Assembly (NCBI RefSeq): GCF_057098645.1
Contig: NZ_CM169472.1
Length of the DNA stretch: 64,000 nt
Strand: one strand, 5' to 3'
Shown: positions 1 through 45,655 of the stretch, piece by piece
Layout of the letters: each line of letters opens with the position of its first letter
Position numbering within the stretch: position 1 is the stretch's first letter
The notes under the pieces: model-generated
What the model was told of the DNA's origin: nothing
Databases searched by the model: none
What the model saw: only the letters and a program-made list of their open reading frames with translations
Program-made: the position numbers and the translations under genes

Positions 1-170
1 TAGTGCGCTGGGTTATCGCTCGCCACGGGAATATCTGCGGCAGCGGGCTTGTAATGGGTTAAGTGATAACAGATGTCTGGAAATATAGGGGCAAATCCAT
101 CTACAATTGCGACAAAAACAACGATATTAATCAGTTTATGACTGATTTGTTGTACTTTATTCTCTTTCAT
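1..170 (-). CDS. possible small hydrophobic protein, runs to window edge (start ATG at 170-168; MKENKVQQISHKLINIVVFVAIV...)
   Basis: Own translation of minus strand; GAGGAAG Shine-Dalgarno about 6 nt upstream of ATG; hydrophobic segment; not in supplied ORF track because it reaches the window boundary. Confidence 0.25.
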   Translation of the reverse strand, partial: MKENKVQQISHKLINIVVFVAIVDGFAPIFPDICYHLTHYKPAAADIPVASDNPAH

Positions 171-643
171 TGGTACTTCCTCGCTTTAAAAAAGAGCGCA
201 CTTCGTAAGTGCCCTTATATAAATAACGAGTTTGGTCAACCAATTTTTTGACATGTATCACAAATTTGAATAGATGTATTACATCGGCTATCTTTTATTG
301 CACCAACGTCATTGATATATGTCGCCTGAAGTCAGTTCCGGGAATGAGTCTGATCTCAAGACTGGCCCAGTCCTGGCGTTGATTGGCGCTGAGGAGCATA
401 TCGCATCTCATCATAATGTCGTATCTCCTGGGGTGTTATACAAGATATCGTTGTTGGTAACCTGGGCGAGGAATTGAGCTCTATTAAACCGTCAACTATG
501 CCGGATACATACTGGATTACACTGCAGGCACGCCTTATGAGAGAACGTGCCGCAGTGACGGGTTAATTATCTGAAAGAATTTGTGAGGCTGTATCGGTTA
601 CTCATTGATTTGATAGTTTTACTCTCGGGAGAGTAATAGATAT

Positions 644-1786
644 TTAATCCATTAACGGAAACCAGCCAGTTCCTTTCGATGCCTGAATTTGATCCCATAG
701 TTTATCCGGAATGGTTAATTCAGGAACAAGTTGTGGATTAAGGGTTGTTTGAATTTCATGGCCTCTACCTGATTCAGCTAAAGTCACCCATTCTGGATTT
801 ATCACCAGCCCTTTACCGATTGCAACAAGTGGCAGGCCAGTGGAAATTGCTTCTTGAGCCTGAGACGGTGTGCGTATTTTACCTGCAGCGATTACCGGCA
901 CTCTGCCTGCAATATGATTTAAAATCAATTCAATAGTTCGGGGGCCATTTGGCGACTCAACAGGGTAGCTATCGTTAATACTGACCAGCGAGGTATGTAT
1001 ATACGAAATACCGGATGAAATGAGCCGATCAAGGAGTTTATAAGTATCCTCTATCCGCAGCCCCCCTGTTGCAGATTCTTCAGGAGATATTCTGTAACCG
1101 ATGGCAAAGGGCTTTGTCGCATATTCATAGACTACATTTTTTACTTCCTGTAATACGGCCAGCGGGAAGCGCATACGTCCTTCGAGATCTCCTCCCCATC
1201 GGTCATTACGCTGGTTAAATAGAGGGGAGAAGAAATTCTGTAGAAGGAATCCGTGCGCACCATGAAGTTCAATGCCATCAAAACCTGCTTTAATCGCCCT
1301 TTTTGTGACATCTCCGAATGCTCTAATGGTTTCCTGAATTTCGTTTTCAGTCATTTCCCTGCTTTGTACCACTCTCTTCATAAAGTCACCAGATTTTACG
1401 CTTGATGCGCTGGCACTAATAACATCGTTATTTGGTACAAGCTCCGGGATGGCTTTATTACCGGCGTGGAAAACCTGCAAAATAGCCGGAGCACCCCCAC
1501 TTTTGGCTGCCGCTGCTAACTTTTCAAGGCTGTTAATGAAACGGTCGTCATACGCGGCAAATTCATGAGTAAACCCAATGCCGCTTGGCGTGACATAGGT
1601 ACATCCTGTTATTACTAAACCAACATTTTGTGAGCGACGTTTATAAAATTCGAGTTCTTGCTCAGAGATGGTTCCATCAGGATTCGCTGACCAGGTCGTC
1701 ATAGGAGCCATAACGATACGATTACGTAGCTTTATTTTTTCTGTCAGCATAAAAGGAGAAAACAATGATGGGTGTTTATTTGTCAT
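644..1786 (-). CDS. NADH:flavin oxidoreductase, Old Yellow Enzyme family (380 aa)
   Basis: TIM-barrel OYE hallmarks in translation (MAPMTTW N-terminus, HGAHGFLL motif); GAGG RBS upstream of ATG. Confidence 0.8.
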   Translation of the reverse strand: MTNKHPSLFSPFMLTEKIKLRNRIVMAPMTTWSANPDGTISEQELEFYKRRSQNVGLVITGCTYVTPSGIGFTHEFAAYDDRFINSLEKLAAAAKSGGAPAILQVFHAGNKAIPELVPNNDVISASASSVKSGDFMKRVVQSREMTENEIQETIRAFGDVTKRAIKAGFDGIELHGAHGFLLQNFFSPLFNQRNDRWGGDLEGRMRFPLAVLQEVKNVVYEYATKPFAIGYRISPEESATGGLRIEDTYKLLDRLISSGISYIHTSLVSINDSYPVESPNGPRTIELILNHIAGRVPVIAAGKIRTPSQAQEAISTGLPLVAIGKGLVINPEWVTLAESGRGHEIQTTLNPQLVPELTIPDKLWDQIQASKGTGWFPLMD

Positions 1787-21926: not shown

Positions 21927-23159
21927 TTACCAGGTCACATTGATACCAACTACACCCTGTAGCGGATTCTCAATGTCGTCACCTTTGGTGTAGTCAAGGC
22001 TTGCATATGCTCCCATGTTTTTGGTGATATCAGCCTGTACACCTGCACCCACGCGGAATGCTGCACCGTCAATGCTGGCATTGACAGACTCATCACCCAG
22101 ACGGACTTTGTTGCCATCAGAGAATTCGTTCAGTGCGGCCAGATTCAGATAAGGTTTAACGCTCGCGTTGCCCACAGCGAAGTCATAACCCACGCGCGTA
22201 CCGGCCTCACCCAGCACAGAATTATAGCTGTCAGAATGAACGTTCACGCCGTTGAGTTGATAATCCACACCTTCCAGCGTCAGCGCAGACAGTTTGGCAT
22301 ATGGCTGAATAAACAGGCCATTACCGTCTTTCCATGTGTAACCGCCTTTAACCATCGCACCGAAACCATTGGTGTTAAAGTCAGCTTTGATGGTACCGCC
22401 ACCATTCATCAGGCGAACATCTGCCGTGTTGCTGTAGTGACCAAACTGTGCAGCAGTATCAATGAAGATACCGTTGTTATACTGGCGGCTCAGGTAAGCG
22501 TGGAAGCTGTAACCTTCAGTGTCGCCTTTGCTCTGCATGGTGGTCATGTCACCTTTCGCAGAAGACATCGCCACACCGGCCAGCCAGCTACCATCTTCAG
22601 TCATGAAGCGGGTATCACCACCCAGCATTACACCGTTTACATCCAGGTCATAGGATGCATTTCCCGCGGTGGTATGTTTCTGTTTACCGCCAAAGTACTG
22701 AATCCATACGCCGCCCTTGTCATTTTCGCTCAGACGGACAGCATCCTGACGGGCTGAGAGCGTGTCAGCCTGCAGATTAGCGACGTTAGCCGGAGCAGCT
22801 GCCATTGCCTGAATCACGGAGCTGGCGTTGGATGCTTTATGCGTGTTTTTTACGAAATAAAAGTTACCATCAGCTCCCTGTGTCAGGTCATATTGATACA
22901 GACCACCTTCCGTTGTGCCTGTGGCTTTTAGAGTGCTGTCTTTGCCGGTAGAAATAAATGCCGTTTGTTCATTGATAAGATCCAATGAACCCGCACTGTA
23001 AACACGCAAGTCACCGCTCGCTTTACCGCTGATATCCAGAGTGTTTTCAGAAGAGGCATCAACAATCAGAGTGCCGTTTTGAGAAGCAAACGTGCCAGTA
23101 TTGACTGTAGCCTTCGTGATATTAACCGTACTGTCTTTTACTGCCAGAGCATCAACTGA
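21927..23159 (-). pseudogene. autotransporter remnant: C-terminal beta-barrel translocator plus partial passenger, 5' part replaced by IS
   Basis: ORF 21927..23009 ends ...YTKGDDIENPLQGVVGINVTW (aromatic C-terminus, alternating beta-strand pattern); passenger-like sequence continues in other frames up to the IS end at 23160; no N-terminal signal peptide present. Confidence 0.7.
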
Positions 23160-23198
23160 ACCGCCCCGGGTTTCCTGGAGAGTGTTTTATCTGTGAAC

Positions 23199-24089
23199 TC
23201 AGGCTGCCAGATCATCGTTTCCGATGGAAGTATAATAAGCTTTTTCTGCTTCTGCCGGAGGAGTATGGCCCAGCCTTTCCAGCAATCGTCGATTGTTATA
23301 CCAGTCCACCCACGTGAGTGTGGCCAGTTCCACTTCTGCACGGTTTTTCCAGCTCTTACGGTGTATTACCTCCGCTTTGTAAAGACCATTGATGCTCTCC
23401 GCCATCGCGTTGTCATACGAGTCGCCTGTACTTCCTGTTGATGCCAGTAATCCGGCTTCCTTAAGCCGCTGTGTGTAGGCCAGCGATACATACTGAGAAC
23501 CTTTATCACTGTGATGGACCGTGCCGGACGGTCGACGGGCCCATAACGCCTGCTCCAGTGCATCCAGCACGAATGTCGTCTCCATGGACGATGAGACCCG
23601 CCACCCCACAATGTATCCGGCAAACACATCAATGATGAACGCCACATAGACGAAGCCCTGCCATGTGCTGACGTAAGTAAAATCAGCCACCCACAGCTGG
23701 TCAGGTCGTTCTGCCACGAACTGACGGTTTACGCGGTCGCCTGCGGCAACGGCTTTCCGGCTGATGGTCGTACGGACCTTTTTACCCCGGAGAACACCGG
23801 CAAGTCCCATAACCGCCATGAGACGTGCCACAGTGCATCTGGCCACTCTGATACCTTCCCGTAACAACTGACGCCAGACTTTACGCACACCGTATACCTT
23901 GTGATTTTCATCGTATACGCGCTGTATCTCTTTCTTCAGCCAGTCATCGCGCTGCGCACGGGCACTGCGTTTATCCGGATGATGTCGCTGTTGCTGACAG
24001 TGGTAATACGTTGACGGGGCAATATGCAGTTCGCTGCATAGCGGTCCGACCCCGTACTGCTCACGCAGCTTATCCAGCAGTGGCATCAT
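23199..24089 (-). CDS. IS3-family transposase OrfB (DDE integrase domain)
   Basis: 296 aa with integrase-core; overlaps orfA by ATGA as in frameshift-fusion transposases. Confidence 0.85.
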
Positions 24090-24412
24090 TTTTTCCAGAG
24101 GCGGTCGAACTCCGCCTTCGCAAAATAAGCGGAAGCCTGGCGAAGGATATCGTTACTGCGGCGCAGTTCACGATTTTCACGCTCCAGCTCTTTCAGACGC
24201 TGACGTTCAGCGGTGGTGAGCCCTCCATCACCGCCCCCGGTATCCCGCTCATGCTGGCGAACCCAGACACGCAGAGTCTCCGGCGTACAGCCAATCTTTG
24301 GAGCAATGGAACAAATTGTCGCCCATTGTGAGTCATATTCGCCCTGACTTTCCAGAACCATACGGACTGCCCGTTGACGGACTTCAGGGGAAAAACGAGT
24401 ATTTTTAGTCAT
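24086..24412 (-). CDS. IS3-family transposase OrfA (HTH plus leucine zipper)
   Basis: 108 aa [19 protein letters not shown]...; matches remembered IS629 OrfA. Confidence 0.85.
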
Positions 24413-45378: not shown

Positions 45379-45655
45379 GCCGGATGCGGCGTGAACGCCT
45401 TATCCGGCCTACGAATGGCGCAAGAATCTGTAGGCCTGATAAGCGTAGCGCATCAGGCATTTGTCACCATTGCCGGATGCGGCGTGAACGCCTTATCCGG
45501 CCTACAAGTGGCGCAAGAATTTGTAGGCCTGATAAGCGTAGCGCATCAGGCATTTGTCACCATTGCCGGATGCGGCGTGAACGCCTTATCCGGCCTACGA
45601 GTGGCACGAGAATTTGTAGGCCTGATAAGCGTAGCGCATCAGGCAATTTGGCGTT
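45379..45655. repeat. REP/BIME cluster, three tandem ~60-bp units
   Basis: gccggatgcggcgtgaacgccttatccggcctac ... ctgataagcgtagcgcatcaggca repeated three times; track ORFs here are artefacts of the repeat. Confidence 0.9.

Follow-up and report, generated by a model that had tools for sequence, protein, structure and literature searches.

The window analysed here is a stretch of 64,000 nucleotides from contig NZ_CM169472.1 (assembly GCF_057098645.1), read on one strand. At its very start, the right end of an IS2 element adjoins the 5' part of the small-membrane-protein gene ykgR (Table 1). On the minus strand, the ATG at 170-168 opens a frame of 56 codons that stays free of stops down to base 3 and translates as MKENKVQQISHKLINIVVFVAIVDGFAPIFPDICYHLTHYKPAAADIPVASDNPAH. 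The hydrophobic run LINIVVFVAIV corresponds to codons 13-23 of this frame (window 134-102), and a GAGGAAG motif precedes the ATG by 5 nt, its AGGA core by 7 nt. The initial annotation had built on the open frame, this Shine-Dalgarno (SD) motif and the hydrophobic stretch to propose a small, unannotated membrane protein gene running to the window start, and all three elements are present as it stated. A 56-codon open frame is unremarkable by itself, because the first 4 kb of the window holds 35 ORFs of at least 30 amino acids. The length of the frame would be within chance, and the reality of the gene rests on its homology to YkgR.

Table 1 Features at the left edge of the window
Feature	Position	Strand	Basis or remark
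IS2 (IS3 family), right (IRR) terminal 99 bp	1..99	+	outermost IS2 base = 99
IS2 transposase (OrfB/TnpB) CDS, 3' end, ...SALGYRSPREYLRQRACNGLSDNRCLEI*	2..88	+	translation, PRK09409
ykgR'-IS2(antisense) chimeric open frame	1..170	-	open to window edge
ykgR 5' fragment, codons 1-23 (MKENKVQQISHKLINIVVFVAIV) plus 2 bases of codon 24	100..170	-	identity to intact loci, NF041474
ykgR Shine-Dalgarno, GAGGAAG	176..182	-	read from sequence
ORF of 62 aa, GTG start, antisense to ykgR, spanning the IS2/chromosome junction	63..251	+	spurious
Promoter-like pair TGGAAA-18-TACAAT	78..107	+	consensus match only, 9/12
Terminator-like 6-bp hairpin GCACTT-ACG-AAGTGC plus T-run	188..212	-	consensus scan

The right-hand part of the frame was identified by megablast, with window 1-640 as the query and 5,426 complete E. 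coli genomes as the database. The matches of full identity all start at window base 100 and overlie a coding sequence annotated as 'ykgR: small membrane protein YkgR'; bases 100-170 match the ykgR loci of both O145:H28 and O157:H7 genomes (CDS WP_000662258.1) at 100% identity. The intact gene of O157:H7 TR01 and O145 RM9872 starts at the equivalent of window 170 and has 33 codons, encoding MKENKVQQISHKLINIVVFVAIVEYAYLFLHFY; its native end would fall at the equivalent of window 69. The NCBIfam equivalog for YkgR, NF041474 (curated cut-off 40 bits), matches the window ORF with 44.3 bits (E = 9e-12) over profile positions 1-23 of 33 only, compared with 78.1 bits over positions 1-33 for intact YkgR. 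This match bears out the proposal that a gene for a small hydrophobic membrane protein with a real SD begins at 170. The gene is, however, far from unannotated: more than 5,000 E. coli genomes in RefSeq carry an annotation for ykgR, which has an NCBIfam equivalog of its own and is the subject of published biochemistry. A Pfam search with YkgR returned no match; precomputed annotations do name PF28062:YkgR.

The window shares with the 33-residue E. coli gene the upstream region, the SD, the start codon and codons 1-23, and likewise places the gene downstream of that for an NADH-dependent flavin oxidoreductase, its upstream neighbour, here at 644-1786 on the minus strand. Where E. coli ykgR has its last 10 codons and stop, the window allele instead has IS2-derived sequence from codon 24 onward; EYAYLFLHFY is absent and there is no full-length product. 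The window thus holds a disrupted ykgR allele, not an intact member of the YkgR family, and the downstream side of the gene is placed beyond IS2, outside the window.

The first 99 bases recur 18,589 times across 4,293 E. coli genomes, where they are annotated as 'IS3-like element IS2 family transposase'. Their identity to the final 99 bp of one IS2 copy of 1,331 bp (L002 769-2099) is 100%, and the flanks diverge beyond this point. The terminal inverted-repeat sequence ...GGGGCAAATCCA is matched exactly at 74-99, at the element boundary, and on the minus strand the IS2 terminus motif TGGATTTGCCCC... occurs once in the window, at 99-74. The plus-strand reading frame at 2-88 matches positions 274-301 of 301 of NCBIfam PRK09409, 'IS2 transposase TnpB' (E = 5.5e-14), and the annotated transposase CDS of the 1,331-bp copy ends at the equivalent of window 88. 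These 99 bp take in the right inverted repeat as well as the final 28 transposase codons and do not differ from other copies of the 1,331-bp element, of which the window includes only this right end. The window therefore begins inside IS2, with the right end of the element abutting ykgR and the 3' end of the transposase gene facing the ykgR start, so that the two genes are convergent.

Aligned to the intact locus, the window departs from it between bases 99 and 100, within ykgR codon 24 and exactly at the outermost base of IS2. Codon 24 is turned from GAA (E) into GAT (D), after which the frame crosses the antisense strand of the element. We are highly confident that ykgR is present here as an IS2 insertion allele, with the element located inside codon 24 of the 33-codon gene. 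The idea that the gene continues to the window start has to be given up, as everything from base 99 downwards is antisense IS2 read-through; when the frame is followed through related genomes, codons 1-23 are conserved but codons 24-56 are not. A single intact, unannotated gene for a small hydrophobic protein, of at least 56 codons and running from 170 past the window start, would be in keeping with the open frame, the good SD and the hydrophobic stretch. It has virtually no likelihood, given that codons 24-56 come from the antisense strand of IS2, a sequence that E. coli genomes carry at about 18,600 places, that ykgR, a gene already annotated and studied, stops after 33 codons in more than 5,000 genomes, and that the same frame of 56 or more codons is found in none of the 5,426 complete genomes. 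The minus-strand frame instead reads as a known gene fused to mobile-element read-through, neither new nor a single gene.

Copies of IS elements often break or mis-join short-read assemblies, and a comparable allele in another assembly (GCA_003298015.1, described below) is located at a contig end, so the IS2/ykgR junction could in principle be an assembly mis-join at a repeat. We consider this exceedingly unlikely: unique chromosomal sequence meets the exact terminal base of IS2, which is the signature of transposition, and a mis-join could swap the attached IS2 copy but would not make an IS2 terminus inside ykgR.

In intact genomes, the flavin oxidoreductase gene, ykgR and ykgM-ykgO all lie on the same strand. 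Of the 5,071 complete E. coli genomes that carry ykgR, 5,059 have the gene and its two 60-bp flanks as one contiguous stretch, and a query spanning the IS2/ykgR junction found no place with at least 80% coverage in the 5,426 complete genomes. Over window 100-24,000 (23.9 kb), the sequence is 100% identical to several O145:H28 chromosomes, which carry the flavin oxidoreductase gene, ykgR, ykgM and ykgO in this order and without an IS. Because the junction is absent from the complete genomes and the closest relatives are intact, the IS2 insertion is taken as recent and strain-specific, in an O145:H28-like background. Other elements have entered the ykgR-ykgM-ecpR interval (L001 420-2732 in O157:H7 TR01), which is IS-prone: in TR01 an ISEc8 is located 238 bp past ykgR, and ISKpn26 or IS1 is found in the ykgR-ecpR stretch of other strains. 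In one genome, H60, a breakpoint lies just upstream of the gene.

The 3' end of ykgR, which in the intact gene continues for 31 bases from the junction, is found nowhere in the 64-kb window, nor are ykgM, ykgO or ecpR. If the event was a simple insertion, the left end of IS2, the duplicated 5-bp target and the displaced 3' part of ykgR all lie to the left of window base 1. The left flank would then read ...GGCGTATTCTAC|TAGACTGGCCCCC..., that is, the ykgR 3' end followed by the IS2 left end, with TCTAC duplicated; on the plus strand the left junction would be 5'-...AATAGGCGTATTCTAC|TAGACTGGCCCCCTGAATC...-3', with ykgM-ykgO further left. Alternatively, an IS2-mediated rearrangement (an adjacent deletion, an inversion or recombination between IS2 copies) may have led to the loss or relocation of the ykgR 3' end and possibly of ykgM-ykgO or ecp. 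The IS-prone character of the region, with ISEc8 in TR01 and ISKpn26 or IS1 elsewhere, the breakpoint in H60 and the absence from the window of the DNA normally beyond the junction are all compatible with such a history, which we nevertheless judge rather unlikely: the same absence is predicted by a simple insertion, since this DNA would be situated left of base 1, and there is no positive sign of a deletion. A rearrangement would alter the history of bases 1-170 but not their identity.

A second IS2-type insertion in ykgR is present in assembly GCA_003298015.1, at the end of contig BGQM01000022.1 (L004 4001-4223). It involves the same gene, the same IS family and the same orientation, and there too a read-through chimera results, of 60 aa (P0001). 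The insertion site is 26 bp further 3', after codon 32, and nearly the whole of YkgR is left; the element is an IS2 variant that differs at several bases, and the ykgR of this assembly has the substitution E3K. The different site, the IS2 variant and E3K mark this insertion as an independent event. Two independent IS2-type insertions in the same orientation, 26 bp apart, are the basis for a reading in which IS2 preferentially targets the 3' third of ykgR, or in which the loss of YkgR is repeatedly selected; the insertion could in addition alter the expression of the adjacent Zur-regulated ribosomal-protein paralogs ykgM-ykgO. We consider this improbable, and down-weighted an IS2 hot-spot at ykgR because, among the 5,071 complete genomes with the gene, just 12 have no contiguous copy of it.

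The gene was reportedly first described by Hemm et al. in 2008 from ribosome-binding-site models and conservation, and its tagged chromosomal product is said to have been detected. The family is very small: clustering at 50% leaves 9 representatives, several of which are truncated or chimeric contig-end artefacts. Three database 'YkgR' variants (P0002, P0006 and P0007) end in CLLYTSDAADDAPRV, LSLIHI and SVSYTHLTLPTNSRV, respectively, which we take to be translated Nextera adapter at contig ends; on account of this resemblance they are presumably artefactual proteins. The only truly diverged homolog is P0009, of 34 aa and 66% identity (GCA_900603405.1, contig UWKN01000001.1, L005 4001-4105), from a genome that is about 89% identical at the ykgR locus. 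Its gene has four small indels that form two compensating pairs, leaving the N-terminal and mid segments locally frame-shifted, and its ORF retains the start, the hydrophobic core and the YLFLHFY* end. Conservation of the reading frame among related genomes had been put forward initially as a check on the gene, and the ykgR frame does stay open in P0009, with the caveat that the flanking non-coding DNA is about equally conserved.

The 33-residue YkgR protein has been detected after expression from a plasmid; it cross-links post-translationally to the signal recognition particle (SRP) and does not insert spontaneously into liposomes (PMC7549839, PMC12648545). The residue cross-linked to SRP is V6 (PMC7549839). 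YkgR is also a class I substrate of RseP, an intramembrane protease, in vitro and in vivo, including with chromosomally encoded RseP (PMC10470546). Both translation and membrane insertion, as seen from SRP contact and RseP cleavage, are thus published for the K-12 protein (PMC7549839, PMC10470546).

In the window allele, transcription and translation initiation of ykgR would be expected to proceed, because the upstream region, the SD, the start codon and codons 1-23 are untouched. The ribosome would then read on into antisense IS2, and EYAYLFLHFY would be swapped for DGFAPIFPDICYHL.... When extended through a full IS2 copy, the frame closes 58 codons past D24 to give a chimera of 82 aa, a length that assumes a canonical IS2 interior; an exact look-up of this predicted chimera in public assemblies returned nothing on record. 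Native YkgR is essentially one predicted transmembrane helix (about residues 13-33). The allele would lose the C-terminal half of this helix, including YLFLHFY, and gain a tail with Asp and Pro residues (D24, P28, P31 and D32). With the conserved C-terminus missing and an antisense tail that has been under no selection in its place, the chimeric product is most likely non-functional or unstable, as judged from its predicted sequence. The best 19-residue window on the simple Kyte-Doolittle scale shows no drop, at 2.11 in the chimera compared with 2.01, and so does not itself point to a loss of membrane insertion.

This undiminished hydrophobicity, the intact upstream region, SD and start codon, and the preserved N-terminal part with its SRP-cross-linked V6 would also be expected if the fusion of ykgR' to IS2 gave an 82-aa protein that is stable, anchored in the membrane and functional, whether in the old role or a new one. 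Such an outcome strikes us as very improbable: the new tail is antisense transposase sequence that has been under no coding selection, the Asp and Pro residues fall within and just beyond the native helix span, the conserved YLFLHFY end is lost and the allele was seen in no other genome. We therefore favour loss of function or instability of the product.

The ykgR SD is unchanged both in intact relatives and at the diverged homolog locus of GCA_900603405.1. About 5 nt upstream of it, the terminator-like hairpin is part of the minimum-free-energy fold, with a z-score of only -1.5 that makes it thermodynamically unremarkable; its stem is kept in the loci of both GCA_003298015.1 and GCA_900603405.1. 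The consensus scan gave no convincing minus-strand promoter near ykgR, and two regulatory papers list ykgR in tables only. A search of window 1-700 against Rfam returned nothing. The promoter-like pair across the junction has its -35 element inside the IS2 end and its -10 element in ykgR DNA, and points antisense into ykgR. We rejected it as a hybrid promoter: two such sites occur in the region against 1.9 expected in shuffled sequences, which is not significant. The plus-strand ORF that spans the junction had been dismissed as spurious from the outset, and comparison with the intact closest relative agrees: there, the plus frame is a 37-aa remnant that starts at an internal ATG, and it reaches 62 aa in the window through the IS2 end, which supplies the GTG and the first 25 codons. 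This gene-finder ORF, called across an IS junction, is an artefact.

At this locus a known insertion sequence has inactivated or altered a known small-protein gene, and nothing here is new in kind. Biologically it carries little weight, as one more accessory gene disrupted by an IS in a pathogenic E. coli background rich in such elements. In the annotation of the source genome, ykgR should be given as a pseudogene interrupted by IS2 and not as a hypothetical protein of 56 or more amino acids. More generally, the case illustrates that an open frame leaving the edge of a window can be a known gene fused to mobile-element read-through.

Elsewhere in the window, an IS3-family transposase ORF at 23199-24089 on the minus strand (NF033516, 316 bits) overlaps an ALIL frameshift pseudoknot at 24015-24131 (120 bits). 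The adjoining ORF at 21927-23009, also on the minus strand, matches only the C-terminal beta-barrel of autotransporters, and the region 21927-24131 may hold another IS-interrupted gene. Further along, two tandem matches to the Rfam family naRNA4 (CssrE, a nucleoid-associated ncRNA) are located on the minus strand at 45433-45502 and 45526-45595, with 78 bits each.
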